Virus record (IMG/VR): IMGVR_UViG_3300025430_000001
Location: 1-59,503 of that record
Strand: one strand, 5' to 3'
DNA: 59,503 nucleotides
Source of the DNA: a virus
Lineage: Duplodnaviria; Caudoviricetes
The notes under the pieces were generated by a model, which made no database searches, was not told the origin of the DNA, and was given only the letters and a program-made list of their open reading frames with translations. Both the position numbers and the translations under genes were made by a program. This document shows, piece by piece, positions 23,124 through 56,562 of the stretch. Position 1 is the first letter of the stretch. Each line of letters opens with the position of its first letter.

Positions 23124-23291
23124 TTCTGCGACCTGTGCCGCTGTCGTTGCCGCCTCGACTTGCGGCTTGGCCTGCGAATGAAGCATCGCGATCACTTCTG
23201 AAACCTCTTCATAGGCACCCTTCGCAAGGTGCTTTAGGATGGCATTGACGTGCGCCACGGTGAGCTTCAGTTCTACTTCTAAATTGTCCAT
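23121..23291 (-). CDS. Small protein (56 aa), paralog of 34400..34591
   Basis: Manual translation MDNLEVELKLTVAHVNAILKHLAKGAYEEVSEVIAMLHSQAKPQVEAATTAAQVAE; TAATG overlap. Confidence 0.8.
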   Translation of the reverse strand: MDNLEVELKLTVAHVNAILKHLAKGAYEEVSEVIAMLHSQAKPQVEAATTAAQVAE

Positions 23292-25636
23292 TAGATACCC
23301 CTGTTTGCGATTTCCAGCGCCTTGGCGATGGTTGTATCATCCACGTTAAGCAGTGGCTTCGTGCCCTTGCCCTCGTCCTTCTTAATACGATCCACCATGG
23401 CAATCAACTGGTCAGCCTTGGCTTTTGCAGCGCCAGTTGTTCGACCGCCACTCTTGCGCCCAATGCGACCGCCAGAGGCCTGACCACTGGAAAATAAATA
23501 TGGTGGAACCTGCTGTAAGCCCTTCATAATGGCATATTGACCACCAGCCTTTACAGCTCCTGCTCCCAATGGATTAATGGCTTGCGCCCCAATGAGGGGT
23601 GCGCTTTTTTGAAGGGCTTGACCCACAATCTTTTGACCAGTCGTTGGTGTGTATTTTGACAATGGCTTGGCAATGTTACGGGCACTTAAATTGCCCAAAA
23701 CACTGGCCGCACCGGCTGTCCCAAGCGTCTTTATTGGAAGGCCGCCAAGGATCAATGATTCGGCAGCACCGGCACCCAATTCGCCTAAAAGGCCTTTTTT
23801 ATTACCAAGGCCTCCGCTTGATTTTTTTGCCAATTCGTCGATGTGATTGCCGACAACATTATTGCCGCTAGGCAAATTGCCAAAGGTTTCTACCTTGTTT
23901 AAAGTTTGGCGAAGATCATTCGATGCTCCACCACCAAACAGCAAACTTTTCCCTTGAGGATGAAGGTCTGTGCCGTATTTTCTGCTTAAATTGTTGAATG
24001 AAAAATTGCCATTTGGGGCAATATTTTTTGCAACATATGTCTGTCCGACCTTATCCCATGTGGACGGATCGTACTTGCTCAGTACGTTTTGCAGGTTTGC
24101 AGCATCGGTAAAGTTTGGCCCAGATGTGTTTTTTAAGGCTGCAGATTCGATGCCTTTATAAATTTGGTCACCGGTTTTTGCTCTAGCACCATTGACGTCT
24201 GGATTGCCAGTTATGCGAAGTACGCTTGACCGCAGCTTGTAGAGGTCGGCTGCATCGGCGTTTGCAGCGTTAAAAGCCGCAGTCCCCTCTTCGCCACCGA
24301 GAGAGCCTGCCGCGCCGCGCATGTCTTCTGTTACAGAACCATATAGCCTCTTAAGGATGCTTTCATCCAAATTTTGGCCGCTTGGTCCTCGATTAAAGTC
24401 AATGCCCTTTGCAATGAACCTGCGAAGATTATGCATGTCTTCAAATGACAGGCCGTTTGGAACCGATTCGGCCTTAGCAATAATTGCCAATGTAGGCTCT
24501 ACATCGGAAATTGCAGCCATCGATGAATTGCGGACTGCATCAGCAGCAGCCTGCATATTCGTCATATTAAACCTAGCTGGATTTGATCTAAATTCTTCAA
24601 CTGGCTTAAAAGCATTGTTTAAAGCAGATTCAAAGCCATGTGGGCTTTGGTCGTCCTTTGCCCAGTTTCCAATGGTATTTCGGATTGCTTCGCCTGTGTC
24701 ATTGGTGTTTGCATCGCCAGCGATATCCGCAAGCTTCCCGCCAATTTCGTTTACAGTCTTGTTTGAAGCGTTTGCCATAGAGCTACGCAAGTCAAGATTT
24801 GAAGCAAATGCAGATGGGTTGCTATCAGACGCAACGAATGCCGGAACACTAAAGCCCACATCATCGCCGATTGCACCTGCGATATGACCCTTTGAAATGC
24901 CATTATTAAGCGCCTGTGAGACCTGATCGGAAAATTCAGGTGCGATCTTAGCCCCGAGTGCGCCAATGCCCTTGCCTGCCGCTCCTAGAAGCATAGGGGC
25001 CACTTTTGCCCCTGCTGCCCCTGCGATGGCACCGCTAACCTTATCACCCAGCGTATCGCCTTCTGAAGAACCGTAAACAGCACCTTGGGCAAGTGGATTT
25101 TCCAATACGCTTGCGGCCTCGCCAGCCAGACCAGCCCCACCAGTTAGGGAGCGTAGGCCTGCACCAGCTAAACTTCCAATGTTGCCAGACTCTGCCAATA
25201 AGCCAGCACCGCCTGCTGCGGCGGCCTCCTCTGGGCCAGCAAGGACAGCGTTAGCAGCAGCCGGGATTGCCGCAGCAGCCATGCCTGTTCCATAAAGCCA
25301 TGGGTGTTGATTCCAAGCTTCCTCATTGGATGATTTTTGTTTGGCAAGCTCGTTCAGGTATTCTGGGTCATTGCTACCGGGCATGTGCCCCGACTCTATG
25401 GCTGCAATTAGTTGCGGAGAATACCCAAGCGCGAAAGCATTCGCCGCGCCGCGCCCGAATGATTCCAAGCTCCCAACATCAGGCTTTGCCTTTTGGGTTG
25501 GCTTAAAGTCAGCTCCAACTTCGCCGACAGGTTTAAAGCCTGTGGCCTCCTCATCAGCAGGGCCAATGGGGTTAAAATCATGCAGAACCTCAGGATCAGC
25601 CATTATTGCACCTTTATGTACTTGGAGCCATCCCAA
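23291..25636 (-). CDS. Putative internal virion / DNA ejection protein
   Basis: 781 aa, Ala/Gly-rich, last large gene of the structural operon; C-terminal ASGGRIGRKSGGR. Confidence 0.7.
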   Translation of the reverse strand: MGWLQVHKGAIMADPEVLHDFNPIGPADEEATGFKPVGEVGADFKPTQKAKPDVGSLESFGRGAANAFALGYSPQLIAAIESGHMPGSNDPEYLNELAKQKSSNEEAWNQHPWLYGTGMAAAAIPAAANAVLAGPEEAAAAGGAGLLAESGNIGSLAGAGLRSLTGGAGLAGEAASVLENPLAQGAVYGSSEGDTLGDKVSGAIAGAAGAKVAPMLLGAAGKGIGALGAKIAPEFSDQVSQALNNGISKGHIAGAIGDDVGFSVPAFVASDSNPSAFASNLDLRSSMANASNKTVNEIGGKLADIAGDANTNDTGEAIRNTIGNWAKDDQSPHGFESALNNAFKPVEEFRSNPARFNMTNMQAAADAVRNSSMAAISDVEPTLAIIAKAESVPNGLSFEDMHNLRRFIAKGIDFNRGPSGQNLDESILKRLYGSVTEDMRGAAGSLGGEEGTAAFNAANADAADLYKLRSSVLRITGNPDVNGARAKTGDQIYKGIESAALKNTSGPNFTDAANLQNVLSKYDPSTWDKVGQTYVAKNIAPNGNFSFNNLSRKYGTDLHPQGKSLLFGGGASNDLRQTLNKVETFGNLPSGNNVVGNHIDELAKKSSGGLGNKKGLLGELGAGAAESLILGGLPIKTLGTAGAASVLGNLSARNIAKPLSKYTPTTGQKIVGQALQKSAPLIGAQAINPLGAGAVKAGGQYAIMKGLQQVPPYLFSSGQASGGRIGRKSGGRTTGAAKAKADQLIAMVDRIKKDEGKGTKPLLNVDDTTIAKALEIANRGI

Positions 25637-28600
25637 CGGGCTTTATTGCCATTGGCGTCTTGGTAGACTTTACCCGCCTCTGGCGTGATATTTCCTGTCA
25701 TGCCAGCACCGGGCTTCATTGCAGCCTCAGTTTGGTTGACAAACTTTTCATAGTCGTTTTCAGGAGCCGACAAGAATTTATTTTGATATCCTTGGACATC
25801 ATAATTCTGCTCTTCGGGCTTGTAACCCATATTCATTTTGTCTTGATAATTGACCGATGCCTTTGCACGAGAAATAATATGATGGACAGCGCCGGGCTCC
25901 ATGTTTGGATTGGCAATTTGCCGCTGCAATGCTTCGAGTTCAGCCTTCGGCGCACCGGCAGGCAAGCCAGCCAATTGGGCCGTCATAAGAGATGCTGCAC
26001 CCTTCAGTGCGCTTTGATAGTTTGAAGCATCAGCATCATGAAGCGATGGGTAATTTCCTTGAGGATCAAGGGCCGTCATAAGCTGCTGGAATGATGCTCG
26101 TGCGGTGTCAGCACCAGACCTAAATTGGGAATAGACATTCTCCAAATCGGTCAGGTTTTGCTTAATGTTAGGTGCAGCCCGATTGAACGAGATCGCTTGA
26201 TTAACGAAGTCGCCAGATTGCGCCATACGTTGCCCAGCCAGTGTGGATTGTTGCCCAGCACTAATCGCACCGGGGGCGTTTACAGTTTCGCCAGCGACAT
26301 TCTGTGTCCTTTGATTGGCAACAATTTGATCAAGGTTATGCTGCGCTGATTCAACAGCACCCTTCATATAGAGTGACTGAATGCCTGCGTTTTTGGCAAT
26401 AAAGGCTCTAAGGTACCCTTGATCGTTCATGGCCGGAATATTTACGCCATTGCGGTTGATGCTAAGACTATTCATTTCTGGAATTGAATAGCTAAAGCCT
26501 TGCCCAGAAGGCTGCGCAGAACTCGTGTCTTGAATGCCTTCAGGCAATGCTCCCTTATACCCTGAAACCCGTGCGTATTCTTGCAGGGATACCGGAGGAA
26601 GGCCCGATGCAGAACGTGTGGCATTGTATTCGACAAGACCGCTTTGAAGCTGGTTGGCGACAGCAATGTTGCGGCTCTGTGCAATTGGCTGATCCAATTG
26701 GCGCTGCATCAAATTGTTTTGCACGTCTTCATAAGCCTTAGCGCCGCCACCAATGCCTTGAAGAATGGCAGCACCAAGATACCGGCTATTTGAGCCAGCC
26801 ATCGTACCAAGACCTGCCAAAAGCGGAATAAGGTACTGCTCACTGGTAAGCGCATCGCCGATACCCTTAAGCGGGGATGGCTTCTGCGCTGCACTATCTG
26901 GTGCTTGGAAGCCCGGCTGATCGCTAACTACTGCGGCTGGTGCGGCATTCGGCGCTGGACGATCCGCAAGGCCTGCCCATGTCGGGGAAAGCGCCGCCTT
27001 CATTTCTGGCGTAACACCGTTGCTTTGAAGGTCAGCATCCAGATCGCGTCCGGTACGCTTATTGTAATCTTGCGACGCAAGCTTAATTGCTGCTGCATCT
27101 TGATTTTTAGGGGTCATTGGCGCGTTGCCAGTTGTCCGATCCCATGTGTCCTTGACAAATTGGTAAGCGCCCGTAGCGGTGCTCGTGCCATCTGGCCCAA
27201 CAACTCCGGGATGTGGCGCATTAAGGTCAACTCGACCCTTGCCGCCATTTTGAATGTCGTATTGACCGCCGCTTTCTGGCTGCTTAATCGCAGAAAGTAA
27301 TGGCTTCCAATGCTGAGGAACCGCACTCGTGAAACCATCATTCGATGTGTCAAAACTATCATCTGCAGAAGCGACAACGCCACCTGCTGGAGCAGACCCA
27401 GCATCGCCACCATCAGCATGATGCTCACGACCGGCGACGCCGCCATCCTTCAGCGCAAGAGTAAAAGGCCCAAGTGATGAAAGGAAGCTGCCGATGCCAC
27501 TTGCTGCGGCTCCGACGCCAGAACCAATGGTAGAAGCCATCGTTCCGAGGCCAGAAATCTCGCCGGGGATAGCCGCAATCTTGCTAAGGTCACCCAACGT
27601 GCTTGATGGCTGCCCAGTAGGATTTTGAGCCGTCATAAGGCCATGCTGGCCTTTGTCTTTTTCGGTGTCCGAAACCACTTGCGACATTGGATCGTCGGTC
27701 TGGTAAGGCTCGACGCCGCCACCGTCTGCATAACCGACAACGCCGCCGTGGGCCTGCCCTTGTGGCAAATACTGCTTTAAAAGATCGCCAAAACCATACA
27801 TTCCGGTTGAAGGCTGCGCGGCAACTGCGGCCTGCGCTGGCGTATCCCCACTGGCCGGAACAGCGGCCTTGGCGGCTTGCGCAGGCTGACCAACGATGTC
27901 CTTGCGATATTCGTTTGCCTTTTTAATGGTATCGCCAATATTCATGGCACCCTGCACGTCACCCATAAGCGTGTCGCCCTGCTGCGCACGAGCAGGATTG
28001 GCAATGCCTAAATGAGCGACTGGGAGATTTGCCGCTGGAACAACGCCCTTGCCACCCGGCGTACCGGCTGGGGAGCCGCCATAAATTCCACTCTTTGTGA
28101 AGGGGGCATAGGACTGCTGCTGCGACGCCAGAATAGCCGATAGATCATATGGCGATACGACATCGCCGCCGTTAAAATAACCTTCTGCGGCATGCTGCGG
28201 GGATACGACACCACCCTCAGAGTTTGCGGCACCCCCAAACGCCCGATGCACCGGCTCCGAAGCTTGTTCATAATTAACGGTCTTAAAGCCATTCGATTCA
28301 CCAACTGCCTCTGGATGAACCTTTTCAACGTCCTGAGCCATATAACCGGTATGGGTCTGCTCAGTGTCATCTCCCTTGTACTTAAAGGTATAGATCGGCA
28401 GGCCGTTCTTGGCCGTGCCAACGCGCTTGATGTCTTCTTTAAGCCGTGCATCTGATGAGAACCATGACTGCGGTGCCGTCGTAGTCGTGGTCGAGCCAGA
28501 CAGAGCGCCGGTGCCTTCCGCGATGTTCGCGAGGAACTGCGATACTTGGAATGGATAGGCCTGCTGCTGCTGGAACTGATTGTACAGTGCCGACTGTCCA

Positions 28601-29259
28601 GCCTGCGTCGTTTGCTGACCAAGCGTACCCGCGCCAACCTGTGCCTGAGCTCCTTGAAGACCGGCAGTTTGAGCGGCACCAGCGAGATTTCCATACTGTT
28701 GAGCCAACGCACCCTGCTGACCAAGACCCGTCATATAATTTTGTGCCGCAGATTGATAGCCAGTATTAGCCATCTGACCAAGCGTTTGACCCATAGCAAG
28801 GTTCTGTTGGCCCATAAGAGCCGCCTGAGCCACATTGCCACGATCACCACCGAATGCGCCCTGCTGAATAGCACTTCCCTGTAGCTGCTGCTGCTGTTGT
28901 TGGTTCTGCTGGTTCATCATAGCAGCCGTCGAACCCATAGCATTCTGCAAGTAGGGGTTCATATAACCTTGGACATCCTGCTGATAATTTTGAGCATTAT
29001 AACCTTGGGAAGCTCCGGCTGTGCCAGCCATTGCAGCCTGATAACCGGGTTGAGCAGCATTAGCCTGTTGGTTGATATTGTTAATACCAGCCTGCTGCTG
29101 CTCGTTAAGAGGGGCAACAAACGCATTAGGATCAGTGCTATATTGCTGAAACGGCGTACTGGCTGTAGCTTGAGCTTGAGTATTGACAGCGTTGTACCGA
29201 GCCAATACCTCTGGTGGAATGGCTACGCTTGAAGTCGTTGTTCCAGTTTTACCACCCAT
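25603..29259 (-). CDS. Large ejection protein with an internal S74-type chaperone/autoprocessing domain and a lambda-R-like lytic transglycosylase domain
   Basis: Q-rich N-terminus; SDARLKEDI...GYMAQDVE...VNY; AIKQPESGGQY...STATGAYQFVKDTW...QDAAA...LSPTWAGL. Confidence 0.8.
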   Translation of the reverse strand: MGGKTGTTTSSVAIPPEVLARYNAVNTQAQATASTPFQQYSTDPNAFVAPLNEQQQAGINNINQQANAAQPGYQAAMAGTAGASQGYNAQNYQQDVQGYMNPYLQNAMGSTAAMMNQQNQQQQQQLQGSAIQQGAFGGDRGNVAQAALMGQQNLAMGQTLGQMANTGYQSAAQNYMTGLGQQGALAQQYGNLAGAAQTAGLQGAQAQVGAGTLGQQTTQAGQSALYNQFQQQQAYPFQVSQFLANIAEGTGALSGSTTTTTAPQSWFSSDARLKEDIKRVGTAKNGLPIYTFKYKGDDTEQTHTGYMAQDVEKVHPEAVGESNGFKTVNYEQASEPVHRAFGGAANSEGGVVSPQHAAEGYFNGGDVVSPYDLSAILASQQQSYAPFTKSGIYGGSPAGTPGGKGVVPAANLPVAHLGIANPARAQQGDTLMGDVQGAMNIGDTIKKANEYRKDIVGQPAQAAKAAVPASGDTPAQAAVAAQPSTGMYGFGDLLKQYLPQGQAHGGVVGYADGGGVEPYQTDDPMSQVVSDTEKDKGQHGLMTAQNPTGQPSSTLGDLSKIAAIPGEISGLGTMASTIGSGVGAAASGIGSFLSSLGPFTLALKDGGVAGREHHADGGDAGSAPAGGVVASADDSFDTSNDGFTSAVPQHWKPLLSAIKQPESGGQYDIQNGGKGRVDLNAPHPGVVGPDGTSTATGAYQFVKDTWDRTTGNAPMTPKNQDAAAIKLASQDYNKRTGRDLDADLQSNGVTPEMKAALSPTWAGLADRPAPNAAPAAVVSDQPGFQAPDSAAQKPSPLKGIGDALTSEQYLIPLLAGLGTMAGSNSRYLGAAILQGIGGGAKAYEDVQNNLMQRQLDQPIAQSRNIAVANQLQSGLVEYNATRSASGLPPVSLQEYARVSGYKGALPEGIQDTSSAQPSGQGFSYSIPEMNSLSINRNGVNIPAMNDQGYLRAFIAKNAGIQSLYMKGAVESAQHNLDQIVANQRTQNVAGETVNAPGAISAGQQSTLAGQRMAQSGDFVNQAISFNRAAPNIKQNLTDLENVYSQFRSGADTARASFQQLMTALDPQGNYPSLHDADASNYQSALKGAASLMTAQLAGLPAGAPKAELEALQRQIANPNMEPGAVHHIISRAKASVNYQDKMNMGYKPEEQNYDVQGYQNKFLSAPENDYEKFVNQTEAAMKPGAGMTGNITPEAGKVYQDANGNKARWDGSKYIKVQ

Positions 29260-29260
29260 A

Positions 29261-29737
29261 TCAGTGCTCCGTATGTCCGGTCTGGACGTTGTATAAGAAG
29301 AAAGCGCCAGCTGGTGGGCCGAATGAACGCTCGTATAGTTTTACTTTGGCTTCTGTGCGATGATTTGACAGAACGCCAATAATTAGTGGAAGGTTAAGGT
29401 CGTCAGCAACCTTCTTTGAAAAATCACAAAGGCGACGCGCCCTACCGCCCTTTGCGCTTCGGAACTCAGGATCGACAAAAATTGCCTTCTCTTCGAGCAT
29501 CCAAGCATCAGAATACCACATCTGCGTCATCCGTAAAAGGACTGCGCCTTCAATCTTTTCGCCCGGTTCGCCGATGATGCCGACCAGCCCCTGCCACAAA
29601 TAAAGAGCAGGCTTGATCATGCCTAGCATTTTCTGCGGGTTAACGTCCTTAATGCCATTTTCTTCCCACGCATCTAGCGCCAGCTTTAGCATGGCGGTTT
29701 CGTCGGCGGGTGTTCCTAATCTAATCGTTGGTTCCAT
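29261..29737 (-). CDS. GNAT-fold acetyltransferase-like virion assembly protein
   Basis: IRLGTPAD...IFVDPEFRSAKGG.ARRL...KLYER; located just before the ejection genes. Confidence 0.7.
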   Translation of the reverse strand: MEPTIRLGTPADETAMLKLALDAWEENGIKDVNPQKMLGMIKPALYLWQGLVGIIGEPGEKIEGAVLLRMTQMWYSDAWMLEEKAIFVDPEFRSAKGGRARRLCDFSKKVADDLNLPLIIGVLSNHRTEAKVKLYERSFGPPAGAFFLYNVQTGHTEH

Positions 29738-29738
29738 T

Positions 29739-30404
29739 TTAATCTCTCTTTGGGCCGGGAAGTTTCTTCAATGTATCAATCGTTTTCTTGCGGTATCCGG
29801 TCACGAAGTGGTCGAGGATTTCGTGGCCATGGTCAATGTCCCCACCACCAATGCGGGTGACGTCGTCTGGTTCAATAACATATTCGCCACCGGCTGCAAC
29901 GATCTCGACCGGCGCTGTGCCACCCGACGCCAAATGAGAACCGTATGGGCCAGCGCTGCCTTTATACGGTGCGCCGGAAGCATTATACGGAGCTTTGGAG
30001 CCATTGTAGGGCGCATTGCCAGCCCCGTAGGGAGTGGCACCATGTTCCATGTATGGCTTTGACGAAAACATGCGCTTGGCGATCTTGAAGCCTGCCATCG
30101 TGTTGCCTTCGCCCATTGCGCCGATGATGTCGGCTGGGATCACGTAAGACCCCGACGGCACGTTCATTGGAAGGTGATCGGTGCGGCCAGCCACGGGGCT
30201 GTGGATCGGTCCCACATGCAACTGGTGCTTAGGTGCTCCCAGACCCAAGGCAATCTGCTCACCCATGCCACCACCAGCGAGACGCGAATGCCGAGCCGTA
30301 TTCAGCGCAGCGGCAACGGCCTGATCCTGCGGGTGCCCAGCGCTGATCATTTCGCCGATGTTGTGGCTGATTGTTTTCTGGGACTTGCCCTTCGATAGCG
30401 GCAT
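29739..30404 (-). CDS. Hypothetical structural-module protein (GRTDHLP/GEYVI domain with 7-aa PY repeats)
   Basis: MPLSKGKSQKTIS N-terminus; GPIHSPVAGRTDHLPMNVPSGSYVIPAD; VAAGGEYVIEPD. Confidence 0.75.
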   Translation of the reverse strand: MPLSKGKSQKTISHNIGEMISAGHPQDQAVAAALNTARHSRLAGGGMGEQIALGLGAPKHQLHVGPIHSPVAGRTDHLPMNVPSGSYVIPADIIGAMGEGNTMAGFKIAKRMFSSKPYMEHGATPYGAGNAPYNGSKAPYNASGAPYKGSAGPYGSHLASGGTAPVEIVAAGGEYVIEPDDVTRIGGGDIDHGHEILDHFVTGYRKKTIDTLKKLPGPKRD

Positions 30405-34600: not shown

Positions 34601-34909
34601 TTAAAATGGTGGCGATTGCGGTTGTGATACAGGGTGAGATAACTGCGCTATTTGCGCCGATATCCCCATTTCTACGGCTGGCATACTAATGCAATCCGCC
34701 ACCCACTTATAAGCCATTTCTTGGGTGATGTCAGCATATGGAACAAATTCTGCTGGGCTAGGCGTACTTAACTTTGCAGTACCAGATGCTGATGACGAGA
34801 TAGTTCCATCAGTTCCAGTGCATACCCAATTAATAGCCGTAACCACATTGGCTAAACCATCATATACTGGCGTCACTATAAACTGAGGGAATGTCCAAGT
34901 AAATTGCAT
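34601..34909 (-). CDS. Tail-fibre-associated hypothetical protein
   Basis: FTW...NVV..INW...FVPYADIT. Confidence 0.7.
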   Translation of the reverse strand: MQFTWTFPQFIVTPVYDGLANVVTAINWVCTGTDGTISSSASGTAKLSTPSPAEFVPYADITQEMAYKWVADCISMPAVEMGISAQIAQLSHPVSQPQSPPF

Positions 34910-36463: not shown

Positions 36464-36826
36464 TTATAATTCCACCCAATTTTTACTGTTTTCGTCCCAA
36501 ATGTATGATTTACCATCATTTGGGCGTTGAACCGGAGATTCCCATAACCAAGTTGTTTGGTTTAAAGTCCAAGAAGAAAACGGTTGAGGCGCATAAAATA
36601 CATCATGCGTTGCATCATAAATATATCCAATACCTGCATGATTACCGCGCAATGCCACACCACCATCAGGCTGTCCATCTTGGCCGTAATGAATACCGCC
36701 ACGGGTGTTATAAGATGTTTGAACCCATTCAGAAGGCGACCCAAAAAGGCCAGAGTCAATAACATCTTGTTCCGCAACAATGATTTGCGTGACAAACCCA
36801 TTTTCTATTTTTGCAAAATGGCTCAT
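36464..36826 (-). CDS. Tail-associated protein
   Basis: MSHFAKI...WVQTSYNT.GG...AGIGY.YD...PQPF.SW.L...W..P...P.DG..Y.WDE. Confidence 0.8.
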   Translation of the reverse strand: MSHFAKIENGFVTQIIVAEQDVIDSGLFGSPSEWVQTSYNTRGGIHYGQDGQPDGGVALRGNHAGIGYIYDATHDVFYAPQPFSSWTLNQTTWLWESPVQRPNDGKSYIWDENSKNWVEL

Positions 36827-44596: not shown

Positions 44597-44761
44597 TTAT
44601 TTGCCTTTTTTACGCGCAACTGCCACATTATCGACAGCGTTAGGATATGGCCGACCTGCGGCCCTTGCACTAGCCTTAGCACTTTGCTCTTGCTTGTGCG
44701 ACAAATGCTTTGTGTGATGGCCCTTGGGAAGCTGTTTGTCCCAGAATGGTTTGGTTGTCAT
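44597..44761 (-). CDS. Small basic protein (54 aa)
   Basis: Manual translation MTTKPFWDKQLPKGHHTKHLSHKQEQSAKASARAAGRPYPNAVDNVAVARKKGK. Confidence 0.7.
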   Translation of the reverse strand: MTTKPFWDKQLPKGHHTKHLSHKQEQSAKASARAAGRPYPNAVDNVAVARKKGK

Positions 44762-45198
44762 TGATAAGCCTCAAATAGGTTCAATCCGCTATGGATTTTA
44801 ACATAATCCGCAGCTTCCTGTTTGTTTTTTGCTGCCAAAAGGTAAATTCTGGCATATTCTAATAGGTCTGGGTCGTCTCTAAAATGGCCCAAACCTCTAT
44901 TGCACCTATCACATAACATGCCCCTAATCTCGCTTGTTACATGATCATGATCAACGACAAGTTTATCACGTTCTCCGCAAATAGTGCATTCAATTGTTGT
45001 CGCTATAAGTGATTTCAATTCGTGATCAGAGATCATGCCGCGATAGTTTCCACGGCGTATTTCAGACCTATACGAATTACGACAATCCCTGCACCAACTA
45101 TCCAACCCGTTGCGCTTCTTATTATGAAGAGGAAAAAACTCAGAAGTTTCTGGTTTTTCGCATTTGCAACGAGTGCAAATTAGCATGTCACGCCCCAT
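44758..45198 (-). CDS. Endonuclease VII-family (HNH-like) endonuclease
   Basis: CTRC..EK...CRDC; CTICG...VDHDH....RGMLCDRCNRGLG.F.D. Confidence 0.88.
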   Translation of the reverse strand: MGRDMLICTRCKCEKPETSEFFPLHNKKRNGLDSWCRDCRNSYRSEIRRGNYRGMISDHELKSLIATTIECTICGERDKLVVDHDHVTSEIRGMLCDRCNRGLGHFRDDPDLLEYARIYLLAAKNKQEAADYVKIHSGLNLFEAYQ

Positions 45199-45476: not shown

Positions 45477-45866
45477 TTACTTGCCGTGCTCTTCTGACTC
45501 GTAAGAGTGGTGGCCCTTAGGCTCCATACCCTTGTGAGCAGACGACAGTGGGTTCATGTTTGAACCTGAAGCGCGGCCACCCGACTTGCGTGGGGCGCGG
45601 TCTGCACGATGCTCGGCCTTGTGGCCTTCGTGGTGACCGACGTGCTTCTTGGCCTTGTGGATTTTGCCGCCGTGCTTACGCTTGTCGGCTTCCTTGACGA
45701 CGTTAGAATTGCCGCCTTCATAGACGTCATGTGGAGCTTCGTCAGAAGCCCAGTGACCTTCCATAGGCGATTCTACCTTGCCACCCTTCTTGTGCTCTGC
45801 ACGAGGATGCTTGTGATGCACACCGGCTTCCATATGGCCGTGGTGATGTCCTTTGTGACCCTTCAT
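45477..45866 (-). CDS. His/Lys-rich small protein with three xxGG motifs
   Basis: About 22 His in 129 aa; HKKGGKV, RKHGGKI, RKSGGRA; AAGGAG RBS. Confidence 0.75.
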   Translation of the reverse strand: MKGHKGHHHGHMEAGVHHKHPRAEHKKGGKVESPMEGHWASDEAPHDVYEGGNSNVVKEADKRKHGGKIHKAKKHVGHHEGHKAEHRADRAPRKSGGRASGSNMNPLSSAHKGMEPKGHHSYESEEHGK

Positions 45867-47088: not shown

Positions 47089-48000
47089 TTACGAAGTTGG
47101 GAACGAACCGTAGATCGAACGCCAGTTGTAATAGCCAAACGAGTAACGCTCATAACCCTTTACAAGTAGATTATCAGTAACAAAATCCACTTGCATGTCA
47201 GTTTCGAACTTTACGCGCTCCATATAGGCTAAACCGTCGATGTTGGTAAGTAAGAACCAAGCATATGGCGAGGTCAAGAAGTCGTTGACCATGTAACCTT
47301 CTGGAAGACCACCGGCAGTCGTCATGAGCGCGTTGACATCGTTGTCAGCAGTACCCGGACGCAATTCAGTCTTCAGAAGACGGATTGCAACTGGCTCCAA
47401 CTGAGGAGGGATAATCAACTTGCGACCACGAGCAAACACCTTCAGACCGGCCTGATCCTTGAAGTTCGTGCGGATTGCGATCATCGCATTCAGCAAGGTG
47501 GCTTCGTTAAGATCAACCTGCGTGGTTGGGGTGTTGGCAACCGTACCGCCGTCGATAGGATGCGCCGTGGAGCAGAGTGCCACACCGTCGCCGCCGACCG
47601 CTGCATTGTAGGTCGTTGCCGTATTCAAGAGGTTCGCGCCGTAGATTTCCTTGGTCTGCTGGAAAGATTCCATCAAGCCGAGGTTCGAAGGGGTGAACTG
47701 GGTCTTGTAGAGGTTGTCGTCGATTGCCTTACGGGTAATCGCGTAGCCGAGAGCAATTTCAGTGTGCTCTTGGTTGTACACAAAACGCTCACCCGAGCCC
47801 GAATCGAAAGCCGTCTGGCCACCTTCGCTCTTAAGCTGAGCGAGGCCGAGGTAGCGCATTTCTGCGGTACGTTCGAGAGCCATCTTCGAATCGTGCTTAG
47901 TGAAAATCTTGTCGTACTGAGATGGGATCATCTCATACTTGCCTTCAATGCCACGGAGACCGGGGAGCAAAAGGTCTTTAATCTGTGATAGAATAACCAT
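47089..48000 (-). CDS. Major capsid protein (HK97 fold, Mu gpT-like)
   Basis: LLLPGL, K.EG....FD, ALGYAIT..AIDDNLY, DGVALCSTAHP, LIIPPQL, ERYSFG...WR..YGS. Confidence 0.9.
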   Translation of the reverse strand: MVILSQIKDLLLPGLRGIEGKYEMIPSQYDKIFTKHDSKMALERTAEMRYLGLAQLKSEGGQTAFDSGSGERFVYNQEHTEIALGYAITRKAIDDNLYKTQFTPSNLGLMESFQQTKEIYGANLLNTATTYNAAVGGDGVALCSTAHPIDGGTVANTPTTQVDLNEATLLNAMIAIRTNFKDQAGLKVFARGRKLIIPPQLEPVAIRLLKTELRPGTADNDVNALMTTAGGLPEGYMVNDFLTSPYAWFLLTNIDGLAYMERVKFETDMQVDFVTDNLLVKGYERYSFGYYNWRSIYGSFPTS

Positions 48001-49314: not shown

Positions 49315-49323
49315 ATTCCTTTC

Positions 49324-50175
49324 TTAACCAGCCATCCGACCGGATTTTACGAGTGCGACTTTATTTTGGGCGTATTCTTTCGGCGTCATGCCCATGTCTT
49401 TTGCAGCTTCCTGCTCGGCACGGGACAGAGTGACGACGTTTGGACGACCCCCGGTGCCCGTTCCAGAACGGGACACAGGTGCGGCAGGCGGTGCAGATGC
49501 CCGACGGCCCGAGGTTGATTCCGAGGCTTCTGACATGGCTGCTTCCTGACGCACGGGCGTTTTATTGATGTTGAGGCGATTTTCGAGGAAGTTGAAGTAG
49601 TCTGGACTATCCGGCTGGATGCCATCATCGAGCGCGTCGAAGTGCGCCCTCTGCAAACGAGCTGCACGGCGCTCGTCATTGACCACATCTGGGTTGTTGC
49701 GAACCCATTCAGCCGACTTTGGCGTCAATTGTGATGCCAATGCCTCTACTTTGTTGGCTACGGGGGCTTTAATCTGCGCCTCGTAGTGCTTTTTTCCTTC
49801 AGTAATCTGCCGAAGGTTGTTTTCCGTCTGGTTGATGGCCATCAGGATGTCGGCTTGGGCGTCAGTGTCGCCGTTTGCCACCGCTTCGCGAAGATTTTCC
49901 TTTAAAATCTCCTTATTGCGGCCTTCCGTCTCAATTGCGGTGTTTAACATCCGCAAATCGCTGTCTGCCTTGTCGTTTGTAGCTACACGAGCCTGCTGTT
50001 CGGCACGTTGACGGGCAGCTTTCTCGGCTTCAAGCTCACGGCGAAGGGCTTCAATGCCATCATCGACCGTAATTTCGGGTTTTGTCTTGATAACAGGCTC
50101 TTCTGGAGCCTCCACGATGACAATGTCGTCCTCTGGGGCTGTTTCCAGCTCCAATTCTACCTGATTGTCTTCCAT
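49324..50175 (-). CDS. Capsid scaffolding protein
   Basis: Acidic coiled coil; W...NP, G..PDS.DYF, C-terminal VTLSRAEQEAAKDMGMTPKEYA. Confidence 0.75.
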   Translation of the reverse strand: MEDNQVELELETAPEDDIVIVEAPEEPVIKTKPEITVDDGIEALRRELEAEKAARQRAEQQARVATNDKADSDLRMLNTAIETEGRNKEILKENLREAVANGDTDAQADILMAINQTENNLRQITEGKKHYEAQIKAPVANKVEALASQLTPKSAEWVRNNPDVVNDERRAARLQRAHFDALDDGIQPDSPDYFNFLENRLNINKTPVRQEAAMSEASESTSGRRASAPPAAPVSRSGTGTGGRPNVVTLSRAEQEAAKDMGMTPKEYAQNKVALVKSGRMAG

Positions 50176-50185
50176 TTTTATCTCC

Positions 50186-50578: not shown

Positions 50579-50775
50579 TAGAATTTCTCCGCACTGGTTT
50601 GAGCGATATCAAACATTTCCTGAACCGCGTGGAAGGCCTGAACCATGCCCACGTATTTTTGGTATGTTGCATAATCGGCCACGTACCCCGTGGAGATGTA
50701 GCTAACGATCTTCTTCTCTTCTTCGTCGATTAACTTTCGCAATTCGTTTGCGAATTTCGCTGCTGTAGTTTGCAT
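50578..50775 (-). CDS. Hypothetical protein
   Basis: ATG at 50775; DYATYQKYVG. Confidence 0.7.
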   Translation of the reverse strand: MQTTAAKFANELRKLIDEEEKKIVSYISTGYVADYATYQKYVGMVQAFHAVQEMFDIAQTSAEKF

Positions 50776-50881
50776 ATTGCCCTCTTTAACCCCTTGTAAT
50801 GATAGACCGGACGCCCCAAGGGGCTGGAAAGGCGTCCGGTCCTCTCTCATCCGGGCGGTTGCGAACCCCGCCCAGAGAAAC

Positions 50882-52549
50882 TTATTTGCCGCGTGGCTTT
50901 AGGCCGTAGGCTTCGATCTTTTCGAGCCGTGCATTCCCGCCGCCTGCGCCGCTATCAATCGGATAGCCGGTACGGCCACCAGACTTGCGAGGCATTGGGT
51001 AACCCATAGGCTGCTGCATAGGCTGGCCCATCATTGGCTGCTGCTGCATCATTGGCTGCATGCCACCGGCATTACCCAACGAACCACCGACCATCTTGCC
51101 GGTACGACCACCGGTAGCACGGGGCATCTGCGGAGGCATCTGCGGAGGCATCTGAGGAGCGCCGCCTGCCATCTGCGGAGGTGGAACAGGAACGCCCATA
51201 GGAGGCTTTGGTGGCATCACAGGAGCATTAGGCATGTTGGCTTGATCCTGACCGCCGCGAGGTGCCATCACGATGTTGATCGTGGTGGTGCCCTTGGTAC
51301 GGCCACCCTTGGCATGCTGAGCGCGGCCACCCTTTGCATAGATCATGTTAGGATCGGTGTTGCCGTAATAATCGCCGATATCGCTCAAAGCGGCACCCAA
51401 AGCTTTTTCACGGCGATCTGGGGAGAACACACTTTGCGTTGGAGCAGCGCCTGTATTAGGTGTCCCACCGACACGAACAGGGGCATTCATTGCCGCACGT
51501 TGCGCGGGGTCCATCATGCCTTGGCTCATCATCCCCGTATCTGGAGTGCTGCGCATGATAGATGGCGAGGCTGCCGAACGGAGAGGAACGGCGGCTGGCA
51601 TAACGCCACGGCTTGGACCCTGCGCTGCCAATGCAGCCTGACGATCCTGCGGTTTCATTGCAGCAATTTGATCAGGAGTTGCCTTATCAAGATCACTCCA
51701 ACCCGTCAGAAAGTTATAGTTTGCCATTGGCATTACGGTATCGCTGACATCGCGGCCACCACCGGCACGAGCCTTGCGACCGCCGACAGCTCCGGGGTTC
51801 TTCTGTTTGGAGTTGCCAGAGAAGATGCCACCGCCGGAATACTTGCCGGTACGGGCCTCAGGCTTGACCATGCGCTTGATCAGCGCCTTGTCTTCGGCGA
51901 CGTCTGGGTGCTTGATCTTGCCGCCCTTCTTTTTGCCCTGCGTGGTAAGGTTTGTGTCGGGCATAAAGTTGTGCTTGTCTTCAGCGCCGTGATAGATCGG
52001 TGCGCCTGTTGCTGGTAGGCCACGACCCGGCATGCCACGAGGCTGCTCTGGGTTTTTGTTTAGATAGTCAGCAATTGCATCACCGCCATCGGCCCTCTTG
52101 GTCCGGCCACCCTTCTTCATAGCGCCAGAAGCCTTGCCCATGGCCTTGTTTTGATCGGAAACAGGATTGTTGCCAATCATGCCGCCGCCAAACTTATTGG
52201 TGCGACCGCCCTTCTTGAACGCGCCCTCATGCTTGATGCCTTCACGGACATCATTAGCCATGCGCACGTCGCGGTTGATCAGGTTGTCGGGGGTCAGCGC
52301 ACGGCCACCGGCCTTGCGGGGCTTGCGGTCGGCGCGTTTCATGGCGTCTGCGCCGATGACTTTGCCACCCTTCTTGTACAGGCGCTTTGTAAGCGGACGT
52401 GCGCCGGTCTTCACACCTGCATTTTCAGGAGCCGATGGCGTCCACGTCGAGCTATCGACCTTTTGCTGTGGGTCGTTCTTGGTAAGGCGCTGGGCCTTCG
52501 ACCGGCCACGGTCGTCTTTCTTGTATTCTTCCATAGTAACGTACTCCAA
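50882..52549 (-). CDS. Basic low-complexity protein with about 14 xxGG motifs
   Basis: KKGGKV, KAGGRA, KKGGRT, RADGG, AKGGR, ATGGR, KSGGR; PQMP repeats. Confidence 0.8.
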   Translation of the reverse strand: MEYVTMEEYKKDDRGRSKAQRLTKNDPQQKVDSSTWTPSAPENAGVKTGARPLTKRLYKKGGKVIGADAMKRADRKPRKAGGRALTPDNLINRDVRMANDVREGIKHEGAFKKGGRTNKFGGGMIGNNPVSDQNKAMGKASGAMKKGGRTKRADGGDAIADYLNKNPEQPRGMPGRGLPATGAPIYHGAEDKHNFMPDTNLTTQGKKKGGKIKHPDVAEDKALIKRMVKPEARTGKYSGGGIFSGNSKQKNPGAVGGRKARAGGGRDVSDTVMPMANYNFLTGWSDLDKATPDQIAAMKPQDRQAALAAQGPSRGVMPAAVPLRSAASPSIMRSTPDTGMMSQGMMDPAQRAAMNAPVRVGGTPNTGAAPTQSVFSPDRREKALGAALSDIGDYYGNTDPNMIYAKGGRAQHAKGGRTKGTTTINIVMAPRGGQDQANMPNAPVMPPKPPMGVPVPPPQMAGGAPQMPPQMPPQMPRATGGRTGKMVGGSLGNAGGMQPMMQQQPMMGQPMQQPMGYPMPRKSGGRTGYPIDSGAGGGNARLEKIEAYGLKPRGK

Positions 52550-52554
52550 AGTTG

Positions 52555-55500
52555 TTAGCGGCGTCCCGCTTTGCTGCCAGTGGGTTGATAGTTTGACGCA
52601 GGCAACTTTGCGCCAAATTTCGAGATCACATGATCTGTCATCTGAGAGCCGACTGTGCGTCGGTAAACCTTGCCACCTTTCTTGAATGGCTGTTCAACCC
52701 ATTGAAATGTACCATCTGGCATCTGCTTCTGTACCATATGTGTCTTACCACCGCCGTTGCCATTGGTGGGCCTAGTTTGGTTCTGCATTCCCATTAAATC
52801 ATATTGAGCATGAGTAAACGCATCGGAAGGCGACATACCTTGATCGACATACTGCTTTTGTTGCCGATCAAGAATTTGCTGCTGGCTCTGGCCAAAGATG
52901 CCTGCAACATTATTCACAAGGCCCGATATAGGGTTGCTTGGCTCGTATGTCGATGGATTGATCGGCGGCAATGGCACGTTGGCAGGCGGTGCTGCTGCTA
53001 TCGGGGTAGTAGTTGGGGTAGGCGCAGGGGGGTTAACCGCTACCGGGGTAGCAGTTGCGGTCGCAGGCGTCGGCGTATACGGGGCGGCAGGCTGCACCAT
53101 TGGCACAGCTCCAGTTGCGGGTGTTCCGCCAAGATGTGTTGCGTCATCCGCAGTGGGCGTTGGCGTGTGCGGGAATGCTGGCTGGGTGATATCTTTTGGC
53201 TGTGCGGCAGCCAAAATCGATTCAAGGGGCGTTCCTGTTGCGGATGTAATAGGATTATTGTTGTCTGCCGTCGAAGGCGTTGGCGTATGCGGTGCCATTG
53301 GTTGCGTCGAAGAATCACCGCCGTAAAACGCGCCAGCTTGTGGCGGTTGCTGTCCAAAAGTTGTTGTCGCGCCAGTAGGACCAAACGCATTGATCAGAGC
53401 CGCCGTAGCGGCGCTTGCAGCACTTGGAGGCGCTTCGGCAGCAGTTGCCTGCGCGTTGGTCACGCCATTGTTGAGCACCGACATACGTTCGGCTTGAGCT
53501 TGCCGAGTTGCGGCGACATCGGCAGCGGACTTGTTAACCGCAGCCTCGTTTTCGCCTGAATGGAACCCAGCCCAGCTTGGGATCGGGCCTTGGCTGGCAA
53601 GCTTTTCAGCTTCGGACGGTGGAGCGCCCCGATCTTCAACGCTTGCTTCGGGAGCCGACTGCTCTGATTCGCCGCGACCGACAGCGTTTAGTGATTCGTG
53701 CTCGGTTGGGCCGCCATCATCAAACGCGTCACGGTGATGCCAAATACTGCCCTCTACCTTGCCACCCTTTTTATATGCACGGCGCACCGACCCGCCAGTG
53801 GATTCATGTTCTGGTTTTTTACCGTATCTTTGAATAGCAGGGGTATCAGCAGTAATATTTACTGGTCGAACATAAGACCCAGAGCGGACATCACCTAATC
53901 CAGATGCACCTTGCTGAGTTCCATGCCAAGAAGCGGCACGTTCATCGCCTTTTCCTGCCATTTTAAAAATTTCATCAACTGCTTGCGAATGATTTAATTC
54001 GCCTTGTGCATAGCGTTGCCAAATATCACGAGCCGCTTTTTGCATTTTTGGGCCTTTGTCACTAAACAAAGTACGGACACGCTCCCACGTTACAGATTGC
54101 ATTTCAGAAGGATGAACGCCTCGTGCCCAAGCTGCCTTGCGAACTGATTCTGCATGAATAGGATAATCGCCAATTGCTCCTGTAGAACCTGTTTTCTTTG
54201 GCGAATCTTCTTTAACCCAAGGCTCGTTTACACGTTCAAGATAAGCCTTGCCTTTTTTATCAGGGGACGTGCCAAAATTACGATGTACAGCTTTAGCCGC
54301 TGATCCATGAGGCAACAAATCACCTGCGGCAACAGCATGCGTATCAATAACGACGCCATTTGGATCATGTGGATTGGTAATCACATTGTAAAATTCACGA
54401 ACTTTGTGATTGTTACCAATTTGTTGATTAATGTTTTCAAGGCTTGGATTATGCCAAATGCTGATAGCTTTTTGAATTGGAAGATAAGAATTCCACGAGG
54501 ATGTATCGGGGGCCGACCCAGATTTGTTCATCATAGTCCCAATAAACTGACCGGTAGGGCTTACAGCATTATATTCAGTTGGGTTATGCGCCTCATCAAA
54601 CGCACGGGACCACATTGCAGCACGAGCCTCGCCATGCGGTCCTGCAAGAACTTCACGCAAAGTTTTTCCTTGGATGTCCGACCACTTGTGCGGCCCTGTT
54701 TCCTTTGTTCCCTTCATCTGTGGCAAACCTTTGCCGCCAGATCCGCCATTTTTAATCACATCTGACATGCCGTTTGTCCACGGCGTATCAAGATGGTGGT
54801 GCAAAATATCCATTAACCGTTCGGCCTGCGTAACATTTTTGTCCCAAGGGTTTTGGGGCGACAATACAGCCATAATTCCATGCGCTGCACGAGGCATAAT
54901 GTCGTGTTCATCTGCGTATGCATTACCAAGAGCGTGTGCCGCACGATACCAAAACCGACTTGTTTGCCGTTGTGCAGGTGGCGTTCGATCCCAAATTTCT
55001 AAAAGATTTTTGGTTTGGAAATCTGTTGCTCTTTTAATGGCTTCTTCGCCATCAACAACATTATATCCAGAAGCGGGATGATTGCGCCACATGCGAAGTG
55101 CGCTTGCTTCAAGGTTTTTCCTTGAATGCTGCTCTGGAGATATGTCTTGTCGTGCCTCACCCTCTTTAGGTGGGCCTTTATAGGCGGAGACGGTCTTCGG
55201 CATAAGAGCGGAAACCGTATTGGGGTTAGGTTGCCCCGGCGCTAACGTATCGCCAAAGTTTACTTCGCCTTTGTATCCGCCGCCTTGGCGGTGTGCTTCT
55301 TCGAGGAGTTCTCCAAGTCGAGCTTCCGCTTTGGTACGAAGAGAATCGTAGGCTTCCGATGTGGATGCTCGGGATGGTTCGCTGGTCGATGACCCAGATA
55401 TGCCATAATTTGTCCCATGTTCTGGAAATGAAATATTGGTAGGATAAGAGGACACATCATATTGCCCCTTAAGGTGTTTGTCTATGGCTTTTGCATGTTC

Positions 55501-56562
55501 AACGGTATCATCACCACCAGACCCGGCCATGATGTCCATGGTTCCACGGCCTAGATCGGTCGAATGGCCTTGGGCAAGACCTTGCGCATGCAAGCTCTTA
55601 TAAACCTCGTGGGCATGCTCCGGCGAAACATCAGCAGGCATGTGAACGCGCACCACACCAGCAGGGAAACTGCCTTCAAATGGATGCGCATGGGCACCCA
55701 TCATGGAATCCTGACGGAATAGGTGGCCCAAGCTATTTAAAGCTGGCCCAATGTGATCGGGATTATAGGGGTGAAAAGTGTAATTTGGGTTGCTGTCGCC
55801 TTCAAACCCGCCAAGGCCGGGGCGCACTTCGCCGGTATAGCCGGTTGCGCGTTGCCAAGGACTGATAAACTCGCCGATCATCTTGTTGGAAACAGCCTGT
55901 TTGGCCTGAGGATGCAACTGCTCCCATGACGCCTTTTGCTTGGGGTCATATGTCTTGCCGGGCGCAACCTCGAAGAAGCCGGACGGTGCCTGCTGCTGGG
56001 TTGCGGGTGCTGGCTTTACAGGGGCAACCATTGCGGGGTCTGTTACTGCCCCCTTTGTGGCGTATCCTTCTACGTCGCCGCCCTCGGCCTTGGTGATGTC
56101 TAAGTTTGATAACCCACGTTCAATTTTATCAGACATGGCTTTTAAAGCATTTAGCTTATGACCCATTGCATTACGGGCATGAAGCATAACTGGCAAATGT
56201 GGCTTACCCGTTTGCTTTGCAGCAGCCAAGCGATGATGACCATTTGAAAGCATAACACTAGGATCATGCTCATCATTATTTCTGTTATAGCGAAATGCTG
56301 TGGCTTCAACAGGTTCGGAAAAATCCATATTACGAGCAACATCGTCACTTACACGATGCGTTTCACCCGCCATACCAGAATGATCTATGGCATGAGTCGG
56401 AAGGTATTTTATCTGAGGAATTGACCCATTGTATTTTTGATTTGGTTCAAACTCATCCCGCCTTGGATCACCGACAGGGATCGCATCCCGCCCACCTGCC
56501 GCACGGTGTAACCCACGGATTACATGTACTGACTGTACCAGCTTGCGGAGCGCGTCATCCAT
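52555..56562 (-). CDS. Large multidomain (polyvalent-type) protein: ParB/Srx-like domain, DNA-glycosylase-like domain and Pro/Ala/Thr-rich region
   Basis: LSNGHHRLAAAK....LPV (ParB-like); WYRAAH...AVLSPQNPW..N...KVREFY...VVIDTHA...QSVTW. Confidence 0.75.
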   Translation of the reverse strand: MDDALRKLVQSVHVIRGLHRAAGGRDAIPVGDPRRDEFEPNQKYNGSIPQIKYLPTHAIDHSGMAGETHRVSDDVARNMDFSEPVEATAFRYNRNNDEHDPSVMLSNGHHRLAAAKQTGKPHLPVMLHARNAMGHKLNALKAMSDKIERGLSNLDITKAEGGDVEGYATKGAVTDPAMVAPVKPAPATQQQAPSGFFEVAPGKTYDPKQKASWEQLHPQAKQAVSNKMIGEFISPWQRATGYTGEVRPGLGGFEGDSNPNYTFHPYNPDHIGPALNSLGHLFRQDSMMGAHAHPFEGSFPAGVVRVHMPADVSPEHAHEVYKSLHAQGLAQGHSTDLGRGTMDIMAGSGGDDTVEHAKAIDKHLKGQYDVSSYPTNISFPEHGTNYGISGSSTSEPSRASTSEAYDSLRTKAEARLGELLEEAHRQGGGYKGEVNFGDTLAPGQPNPNTVSALMPKTVSAYKGPPKEGEARQDISPEQHSRKNLEASALRMWRNHPASGYNVVDGEEAIKRATDFQTKNLLEIWDRTPPAQRQTSRFWYRAAHALGNAYADEHDIMPRAAHGIMAVLSPQNPWDKNVTQAERLMDILHHHLDTPWTNGMSDVIKNGGSGGKGLPQMKGTKETGPHKWSDIQGKTLREVLAGPHGEARAAMWSRAFDEAHNPTEYNAVSPTGQFIGTMMNKSGSAPDTSSWNSYLPIQKAISIWHNPSLENINQQIGNNHKVREFYNVITNPHDPNGVVIDTHAVAAGDLLPHGSAAKAVHRNFGTSPDKKGKAYLERVNEPWVKEDSPKKTGSTGAIGDYPIHAESVRKAAWARGVHPSEMQSVTWERVRTLFSDKGPKMQKAARDIWQRYAQGELNHSQAVDEIFKMAGKGDERAASWHGTQQGASGLGDVRSGSYVRPVNITADTPAIQRYGKKPEHESTGGSVRRAYKKGGKVEGSIWHHRDAFDDGGPTEHESLNAVGRGESEQSAPEASVEDRGAPPSEAEKLASQGPIPSWAGFHSGENEAAVNKSAADVAATRQAQAERMSVLNNGVTNAQATAAEAPPSAASAATAALINAFGPTGATTTFGQQPPQAGAFYGGDSSTQPMAPHTPTPSTADNNNPITSATGTPLESILAAAQPKDITQPAFPHTPTPTADDATHLGGTPATGAVPMVQPAAPYTPTPATATATPVAVNPPAPTPTTTPIAAAPPANVPLPPINPSTYEPSNPISGLVNNVAGIFGQSQQQILDRQQKQYVDQGMSPSDAFTHAQYDLMGMQNQTRPTNGNGGGKTHMVQKQMPDGTFQWVEQPFKKGGKVYRRTVGSQMTDHVISKFGAKLPASNYQPTGSKAGRR

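Follow-up and report, generated by a model that had tools for sequence, protein, structure and literature searches.

Phage heads carry anti-defence enzymes, wall-cutting enzymes and channel formers for the first seconds of infection, and how such proteins are chosen for packaging is understood in just a few model phages. The T4 capsid-targeting sequence and the encapsulin cargo-loading peptides are short flexible addresses that take unrelated proteins into an HK97-fold shell; the T4 signal is N-terminal and is cut off by the prohead protease, encapsulin peptides dock into a pocket on the inner side of the shell protein, and some encapsulin cargo carries repeated motifs in disordered domains. 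Polyvalent proteins, large multi-module products encoded among late or structural genes, are proposed to enter the head with the DNA and to be delivered alongside it (Iyer et al. 2017; PMC5512222). Here we describe a short Gly-Gly peptide, the tag, in a virus of the Caudoviricetes (IMG/VR record IMGVR_UViG_3300025430_000001, 59,503 nucleotides; this whole stretch is called the window). Judged by its sequence, the 59.5-kb window looks like the complete contig, circularly permuted, of an uncultured podophage. Six proteins belonging to the head and ejection modules carry the tag, and none of the 26 open reading frames (ORFs) outside 23291-59171 has a match to it. The core of the tag opens with an aromatic or basic residue, followed by Ala or Lys and one unconstrained residue; after the Gly-Gly come another unconstrained residue and then Val, Thr, Ile or Ala. 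This consensus differs from those of encapsulin cargo.

The recurrence of the tag goes well beyond composition. In 55 ORFs (16,811 aa), the pattern [FYHRKM][AKS]xGGx[VITA] is observed 22 times against 2.29 expected from per-protein shuffles, and a stricter basic pattern 17 times against 0.52. Ten copies fall in a 555-aa protein (50882-52549; minus strand, as are all carrier genes and tags placed below), where 0.17 are expected, and three each in a 129-aa protein (45477-45866; 0.04 expected) and a 1335-aa protein (52555-56562; 0.18 expected), counts reached by none of 2000 shuffles; a 1218-aa protein (25603-29259) has three against 0.21, which 3 of 2000 shuffles reach. The single copy in a 781-aa protein (23291-25636; 0.19 expected) is not significant by itself, and the tail fibre and capsid protein have one chance-level match apiece. 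A pattern-free k-mer test points the same way: RKSGGR and KKGGKV are the only hexamers common to three ORFs, and four of the six heptamers common to at least two ORFs are the motif (shuffle mean 0.8). Three flavours can be discerned, [YFM]KKGG[KR][VTI], PRK[SA]GGR[TA] and [RHY]A[DE]GGD[AV], every one of them present in three or more proteins. An earlier note on this DNA had claimed that the motif recurs in these proteins and is not clustered in the replication proteins or the capsid, and both statements hold; the numbers that it quoted for the 555-aa, 1335-aa and 1218-aa proteins (about 14, 6 and 8) become 10, 3 and 3 under its own pattern and need a looser reading. It had also counted a 221-aa protein (29739-30404) among the carriers. 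This protein has no match to the pattern, but its two Gly-Gly sites, the degenerate tags RLAGGGM (30264-30284) and LASGGTA (29913-29933), occupy the places of the tags MKRGGKI and KAAGGET in the homologue from MW202675.1, a spring-water metagenome assembly that is the sole relative among deposited phage records.

What is conserved is a peptide. The various carriers are alike only over 13-19 residues around the tag, and the copies differ in synonymous codons, the Ser of RKSGGRT, for example, being AGT in one copy and TCT in another, which are not interconvertible. The constraint is therefore on the peptide, and a DNA-level repeat or recombination sequence was rejected for the same reason. Tandem pairs, another claim of the earlier note, have a favoured spacing of exactly 8 residues, seen 58 times among 997 consecutive pairs in one family, 44 times among 278 in another, and in none of the shuffles. 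The charges on either side of the Gly-Gly co-vary (chi-square p ~2e-8, 381 distinct heptamers), an association that is confounded by protein family and is descriptive only. The reading that we favour, tentatively and with a little less than even confidence, is that the tag would be an uncut docking or tether handle, disordered alone and recognized by some common component inside the procapsid.

The main carrier is the 555-aa protein, which probably starts at the ATG at 52534 and is strongly basic (net charge +43, isoelectric point (pI) 10.3). The first of its ten tags, YKKGGKV (52358-52378), ends a conserved N-terminal leader; the second, RKAGGRA (52298-52318), stands in a context, RADRKPRKAGGRA, that is common to the 129-aa protein; and FKKGGRT (52199-52219) is the exact insertion point of a module in relatives, with tag copies on its flanks. 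Further along come the tandem MKKGGRT/RADGGDA (52076-52120), KKKGGKI (51914-51934), the tandem YAKGGRA/HAKGGRT (51296-51340), both pairs being 8 residues apart, RATGGRT (51101-51121) and, at 50885-50989, RKSGGRT together with a conserved C-terminal module (GYPIDSGAGG..ARLEK..AYGLKP) that is doubled in two relatives (L017 and L024). An AlphaFold model built from a 121-sequence alignment shows a mostly disordered protein with five short helices and a mean predicted local distance difference test score (pLDDT) of 53. In the segments that hold the tags, pLDDT is below 50 without exception, and the only confidently folded piece, aa 272-312 (51614-51736; pLDDT 85-95), is tag-free. With that mean score and only this one piece confident, a folded repeat domain was rejected, and a 121-sequence profile searched against the PDB found only low-complexity matches (best E 0.017). 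Every one of the 120 best homologues has basic tags, between 4 and 12 of them with a median of 8, and their positions align despite a mean column identity of 14% in the family alignment. Many relatives (nine loci, L017 and L024 among them) also have, between two tags, a His/Cys-cluster insert, HHxDCTCxMCxGGR, which is not in the window and may be a metal knuckle.

The 129-aa protein is smaller, His-rich (22 His) and likewise basic (pI 9.6). Its three tags, HKKGGKV (45774-45794), RKHGGKI (45660-45680) and RKSGGRA (45570-45590), are retained in five relatives, and other contigs encode small basic tag-bearing proteins in the same slot, upstream of adaptor-like genes. Could the basic flavour be a contact with DNA? 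KKGGK and RKSGGR would then be a histone-tail-like polycation, and the 555-aa and 129-aa proteins internal DNA-condensing proteins. Their charge fits, both are predicted to be disordered or to carry nothing but tags, Lys-rich tag arrays are encoded in other contigs, and Lys-Gly-Gly-Lys stretches in the tails of histones and ribosomal proteins resemble the basic flavour of the tag. However, an acidic flavour (YADGGDV, HADGGDA, KAEGGDV) sits in acidic proteins of the same phage and cannot bind DNA, its presence in the same virion argues against DNA as the general partner, and charge by itself needs no conserved aromatic or beta-branched positions. We consider DNA contact a quite improbable role for the tag.

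The gene that adjoins the 555-aa gene encodes a phage GroES (50186-50578, minus strand; Pfam and PHROGs), and this raises a different explanation, in which the tags mimic the GroES mobile loop and engage host GroEL alongside the phage GroES. The GroES loop is disordered and becomes a hairpin when on GroEL. A loose version of the pattern matches the mobile loops of Caulobacter phage RW gp90 (KTKGGII) and Pelagibacter phage HTVC023P gp36 (KTKGGVI), and the median of eight tags is near the seven loops of a GroES ring. In most tags, however, Lys/Arg-Val/Thr stands in place of the GroEL-binding hydrophobic tripeptide, and phage RW has a GroES and no tags. A chaperonin handle is thus hardly credible. 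The loop of the window's own GroES reads KTKSGIIL; the match of the distant loops to the tag may be a coincidence or a hint as to how loops are read.

Directly after the portal gene lies the gene of the 1335-aa cargo protein (52555-56562), which has three pattern tags and two tag-like sites. It matches DUF7178 from aa 514 (E 1e-24), has a weak ParB-like PHROG match at aa 77-133 (E 7.6e-4) and ends in a Pro/Thr-rich tail. The tag KAEGGDV (56071-56091) stands behind the N-terminal module, and in two relatives (L006 and L022) KA[DE]GGDV follows an ART-PolyVal match by about 9 residues. YKKGGKV (53755-53775), with the tag-like AFDDGGPT (53704-53727) beside it, begins at residue 930, and the similarity of several cargo-slot proteins to the 1335-aa protein starts just before it, at query residues 922-929; two loci have only a 24-residue piece around this YKKGGKV in common with the 1335-aa protein. 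FKKGGKV (52666-52686) is found 36 residues before the C-terminus. At the other end, three loci (L006, L020 and L021) encode proteins that are otherwise unrelated to it but match its first 35 residues at 84-91% identity.

The window and related loci (L002-L026) form a mosaic in the slot that separates the portal and 555-aa genes, a slot encoded as one, two or three genes. Its modules in relatives include ART-PolyVal, InPase, Peptidase_M15, GNAT, GP88 and DUF7178 (Pfam), whereas the portal, capsid, scaffold-like, 173-aa and 207-aa neighbours are 94-99% identical in the nearest relatives. Across the 120 best of more than 7,600 matches, the capsid protein is 92-99% identical. None of 21 tags in cargo-slot proteins lies within a Pfam-matched stretch. 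In the 739-aa protein of MW202675.1, tags at 48, 214, 409, 552 and 732 bracket the GNAT, M15 and ART domains. Among 17 proteins (15 cargo-slot proteins and the window's 555-aa and 781-aa carriers), 13 have a tag at most 60 residues from the C-terminus. The tag marks the borders of modules that are exchanged among relatives.

Such a distribution suggests a passive joint, a flexible hinge or turn that lets neighbouring modules fold and unfold on their own, has no partner and is passed on, as a joint that works, whenever modules are shuffled. The disordered linkers in which AlphaFold places the tags, the mosaic slot set among near-constant portal, capsid and scaffold genes, and the tag copies that border the insertions in relatives would all be expected of it. 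A passive joint is nevertheless unlikely. The Gly-Gly columns and their flanks are invariant or at least 90% conserved in alignments of 72-121 sequences whose mean column identity is 14-27%, the same heptamers occur in unrelated proteins with different codons, the 8-residue register is fixed, and small proteins exist that consist of tags only. Conservation and identical heptamers of this kind exceed the needs of a passive hinge, and the docking handle is therefore favoured over it.

The other concentration of tags is a four-gene block (23291-30404) at the far end of the tail genes, whose arrangement resembles the internal-virion-protein operons described for T7 and SU10 (PMC9509320, PMC4819975). 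The 1218-aa ejection protein (25603-29259) has a Gln-rich N-terminus, a Peptidase_S74 domain (28303-28455, minus strand; aa 269-319, PF13884, E 4e-13), a disordered tag-rich stretch, a region that is lytic in homologues, and a C-terminal domain. Homologues have SLT or another lytic module in that region, some being named 'muramidase' by their sources, and the modules swapped downstream are SLT, Phage_lysozyme2, GH108 and VanY; the window's own protein has no lytic domain by Pfam. The Ser and Lys of SDARLK in the S74 domain are invariant across 72 aligned sequences, and all but one of 120 listed homologues have the domain. S74, an intramolecular chaperone domain, usually terminates tail fibres; here it lies within the first quarter of the sequence and is followed by about 900 residues. 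Self-cleavage at S74, if it occurs, would part the Gln-rich N-terminal piece from the tag-bearing enzyme part.

The tags of the 1218-aa protein begin immediately behind S74 with RAFGGAA, SEGGVV and YFNGGDV (28159-28245; pLDDT below 50), continue with the tandem QAHGGVV/YADGGGV (27712-27756; 8 residues apart), both of whose Gly-Gly pairs are invariant or at least 90% conserved, and end with LKDGGVA, HADGGDA and PAGGVVA (27370-27453) just ahead of the region that is lytic in homologues. AlphaFold of aa 255-780 gives a confidently folded S74 domain (pLDDT 72-92) and a downstream helical module that is confident in part, and all eight tags, within aa 339-630, are below 50, the first abutting the S74 domain. 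The location in linkers that the earlier note had suggested is thereby borne out by two AlphaFold runs. In 120 homologues, 242 pattern copies are found against 26.9 expected, at least one in 114 of them, with the consensus [YF]A[DSR]GG[DGY][VA]. Wherever a copy could be placed relative to the S74 serine (241 copies), it is downstream, at a distance of 50-650 residues, and never upstream. The Gly-Gly columns of the 72-sequence alignment are invariant or at least 90% conserved.

The 781-aa protein (23291-25636), which probably starts at the ATG at 25603, has the pair QASGGRI/RKSGGRT (23438-23482) followed by a 48-residue C-terminal tail, and its MW202675.1 homologue retains GRKSGGRV and the tail. 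Between the 1218-aa and 221-aa genes, a 158-aa GNAT-like protein (29261-29737) occupies the position of the acetyltransferase-like IVP-A slot in the T7-type ejection operon as described in PMC4819975. Its strict-pattern match, SAKGGRA, was discounted as a tag; it lies inside the weak GNAT match and is probably the acetyl-CoA loop.

Are the tags cut? A host protease, or a phage protease of an unrecognized kind, could cleave at or after the Gly-Gly, free the modules and chop the 555-aa protein into short basic peptides. The tags do lie exactly at module borders and after common leaders, polyvalent proteins are argued to need processing into units (PMC5512222), and the carriers are already predicted to be proteolysed at one place, the S74 domain. 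Against this, family searches (Pfam on 54 window ORFs, PHROGs on 24) found no maturation protease of the T4 gp21, phiKZ or adenain type, and no protease family in ORFs of at least 100 aa other than the cis-acting Peptidase_S74, which agrees, at the level of Pfam and PHROGs, with the earlier note's remark that no classical prohead protease is recognizable. Iyer et al. proposed a zincin-like MPTase domain, common though not general among polyvalent proteins, for their processing (PMC5512222), and neither the window nor 16 cargo-slot proteins of relatives have a Pfam match to it. In the 555-aa family, the +1 and +2 positions after the Gly-Gly are conserved as strongly as the P-side. Cutting at the 8-residue pairs would give octapeptides, and some proteins end 2-4 residues past a tag or are made of tags alone. 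We therefore favour an uncut handle: the Gly-Gly is conserved on both sides with no trans-acting protease recognized, and the 8-residue pairs, near-C-terminal tags and tag-only proteins are a poor fit to cutting and natural for multivalent binding. A processing site is an unlikely alternative, although cutting by a host protease or an unrecognized phage protease is possible and counts against the docking handle. The earlier note had proposed a reusable signal, either for loading into the capsid or for cleavage at Gly-Gly. A selected, reusable peptide of head-internal and ejection proteins, at module joints and near C-termini, stands; the cleavage half has found little support.

The tag is spread well beyond the relatives of the window. 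A scan of IMG/VR for DNA encoding YKKGGKV returned at least 124 stretches, and in the 80 loci fetched for ORF analysis 88 of 94 matches fall in open frames of at least 60 aa. For 78 of these 88, BLAST finds no similarity to the window's carriers. Many are small basic proteins, almost none of them named by Pfam, and several share an N-terminal leader that ends in the tag and is followed by different C-terminal modules. Three loci (L034, L100 and L103) encode proteins of 66-100 aa that are nearly all 11-residue Lys-rich tag repeats (KSKGYKKGGKV), and in two of them (L034 and L100) a tag is 2-4 residues from the C-terminus. Of 143 neighbouring ORFs, 22, each from a different locus, are members of phrog_12985, to which an adaptor-like gene of the window (42910-43821) also belongs, and other neighbours are phrog_8198, a 'virion structural protein' N-terminal family, GroES, terminase and portal. 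The small tag proteins therefore lie in the same head-to-tail slot as the 129-aa protein. In cultured phages, no enrichment is seen in the structural proteins scanned from SU10 (gp20-24), Caulobacter phage RW and Pseudoalteromonas RIO-1, and a few weak copies occur in Pelagibacter phage HTVC023P. The literature searched, most supplements being outside that search, yielded no account of the motif, and none of the full-text occurrences of motif strings among the matches listed was in a phage paper. The tag is thus real and conserved and, within that literature, apparently undescribed; the window shows it in an SU10-like freshwater lineage, with a strongly basic flavour.

How might a docking handle work? 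The carriers are probably virion proteins that are packed in the head and injected, because gene order, PHROG names, the ART-PolyVal and InPase domains in the relatives' slot and the T7/SU10-type ejection block all point to it. They would comprise the 'polyvalent' cargo encoded beside the portal gene, the basic 555-aa protein, the small His-rich protein and the T7/SU10-type ejection proteins, with the tags in the disordered joints, leaders and tails of these head-internal proteins. Floppy alone, a tag would adopt a tight turn upon a shared partner in the procapsid, such as the scaffold, the portal or the inner capsid face. Multivalent tags could then recruit and tether any module that bears them and still leave it threadable for ejection, and the Lys/Arg-rich flavour may also lie against packaged DNA.

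Several points weigh against the docking handle. The binding partner of the tag is hypothetical, and the virion location of the carriers comes from gene order and family names. AlphaFold gives no structure at the tags, which makes the turn on binding a pure inference. Acidic and basic flavours coexist, which is awkward for one charged pocket. The closest cultured phages by structure, SU10 (gp20-24) and Caulobacter phage RW, are without the tag, and virion architecture of this kind therefore does not need it. A broader version of the docking handle, in which the tag is a portable address code common to unrelated podophage lineages (crAss-like and SU10-like freshwater phages) and loads cargo by folding, as a turn, into a conserved pocket in the portal or on the inside of the HK97-fold shell, is a doubtful extension.

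The rest of the window provides the setting for these genes. Replication genes occupy its left portion, and its relatives in metagenomes number in the thousands. A minus-strand open frame crosses both window ends (1-1509 and 59119-59502) and is probably the large terminase gene running over the junction of the circularly permuted contig; the small terminase gene is at 2921-3400. The minus strand encodes an SU10-type portal (56555-58858; Pfam SU10_portal), SU10-type adaptors (Pfam SU10_adaptor), an HK97-type major capsid protein (47089-48000; Pfam and PHROGs) and an acidic coiled-coil protein at 49324-50175, without a family match, whose scaffold-like role is inferred. By family searches it also codes for an endolysin, a holin and a tail fibre ending in a Peptidase_S74 domain. 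In the C-terminal region of the portal (aa 668), a GG[VL]V similar to the GGVV sites in the 1218-aa protein is found, at the matching place, in six of seven relatives examined. Near the tail fibre, two Gly_rich_2 proteins (34909-36165 and 36823-37794, minus strand) have 32 and 50 Gly-Gly pairs against 17.9 and 34.5 expected; this surplus was rejected as tag, as it consists of poly-Gly runs. Between the 129-aa gene and the adaptor-like genes, an endonuclease VII or HNH-type gene (44758-45198, minus strand) looks like a homing-endonuclease insertion within the structural operon. PDB sequence searches with the 207-aa and 173-aa proteins found nothing, and ESM Atlas look-ups with the 129-aa and 173-aa proteins gave only unnamed viral clusters, the scores for DUF6496 (0.81) and DUF5872 (0.76) being leads only.

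A tag that marks cargo in very abundant uncultured phages would allow the injected payload to be listed from sequence alone, and it would offer a handle with which to study how cargo is recruited or processed. If the tag is a docking signal, chosen proteins could be loaded into phage particles simply; if the address code were true, virion cargo would be readable from sequence and programmable by seven added residues. An arms race with host defences would be expected to leave such a pattern, in which payload is swapped at the tags beside near-constant capsid machinery.

How does the locus compare with described systems? Polyvalent proteins combine at least two effector-type domains in a single chain encoded among late or structural genes. 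Relatives of the window qualify clearly as encoding polyvalent proteins in the cargo slot, for example GNAT, M15 and ART in one 739-aa protein, and the window's 1335-aa protein fits weakly, with DUF7178 and the weak ParB-like match. The tag is not described in the main text of PMC5512222, in which the words 'linker', 'glycine' and 'low-complexity' are absent. By Pfam, the portal and adaptor families of the window are those of SU10, whose ejection proteins gp20-24 have been described by Siborova et al. 2022 (PMC9509320), and the internal virion protein operon of the T7 type has been described by Hardies et al. 2016 (PMC4819975). Unlike the window's ejection block, SU10 gp20-24 and the RIO-1 structural proteins have no tags, and the tag is therefore an addition in the window's lineage and not part of the common architecture. 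The published statement of 'no proteolytic processing' in RIO-1 is uninformative about the tag, because RIO-1 shows no enrichment of it.

An unrelated phage order also offers a likeness. In the crAss001 cargo protein C1 (gp45), cryo-electron microscopy resolves residues 214-245 and 425-552 (Bayfield et al. 2023; PMC10172136). Scanned for the pattern, gp45 has tag-like sites at 263, 332, 373 and 562 and, near its C-terminus, KAKGGKV at 828. These sites lie beside and not inside the resolved segments, and unresolved stretches part the folded pieces; no sequence similarity between gp45 and the window's proteins was detected. Peptides of gp45 from between tag-like sites are present in crAss001 virions (PMC10172136). 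That article mentions neither the motif nor cleavage ('cleav' and 'proteolytic' occur 0 times).

Two kinds of protease site are similar to the tag. The adenovirus protease cuts at (M/I/L)xGG-x, its substrates including basic core proteins, and C39 peptidases cut double-glycine leaders. These sites likewise combine Gly-Gly with a hydrophobic residue three or four positions upstream. Unlike in those systems, no clan CE or C39 peptidase is recognized in the window and the positions after the Gly-Gly are conserved. Targeting of the T4 type, with a removed N-terminal leader of about 10 residues, also differs, as the tags are internal or near the C-terminus and are repeated, although some shared N-terminal leaders close with a tag. 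By analogy, the tag appears most like a cargo-addressing peptide.

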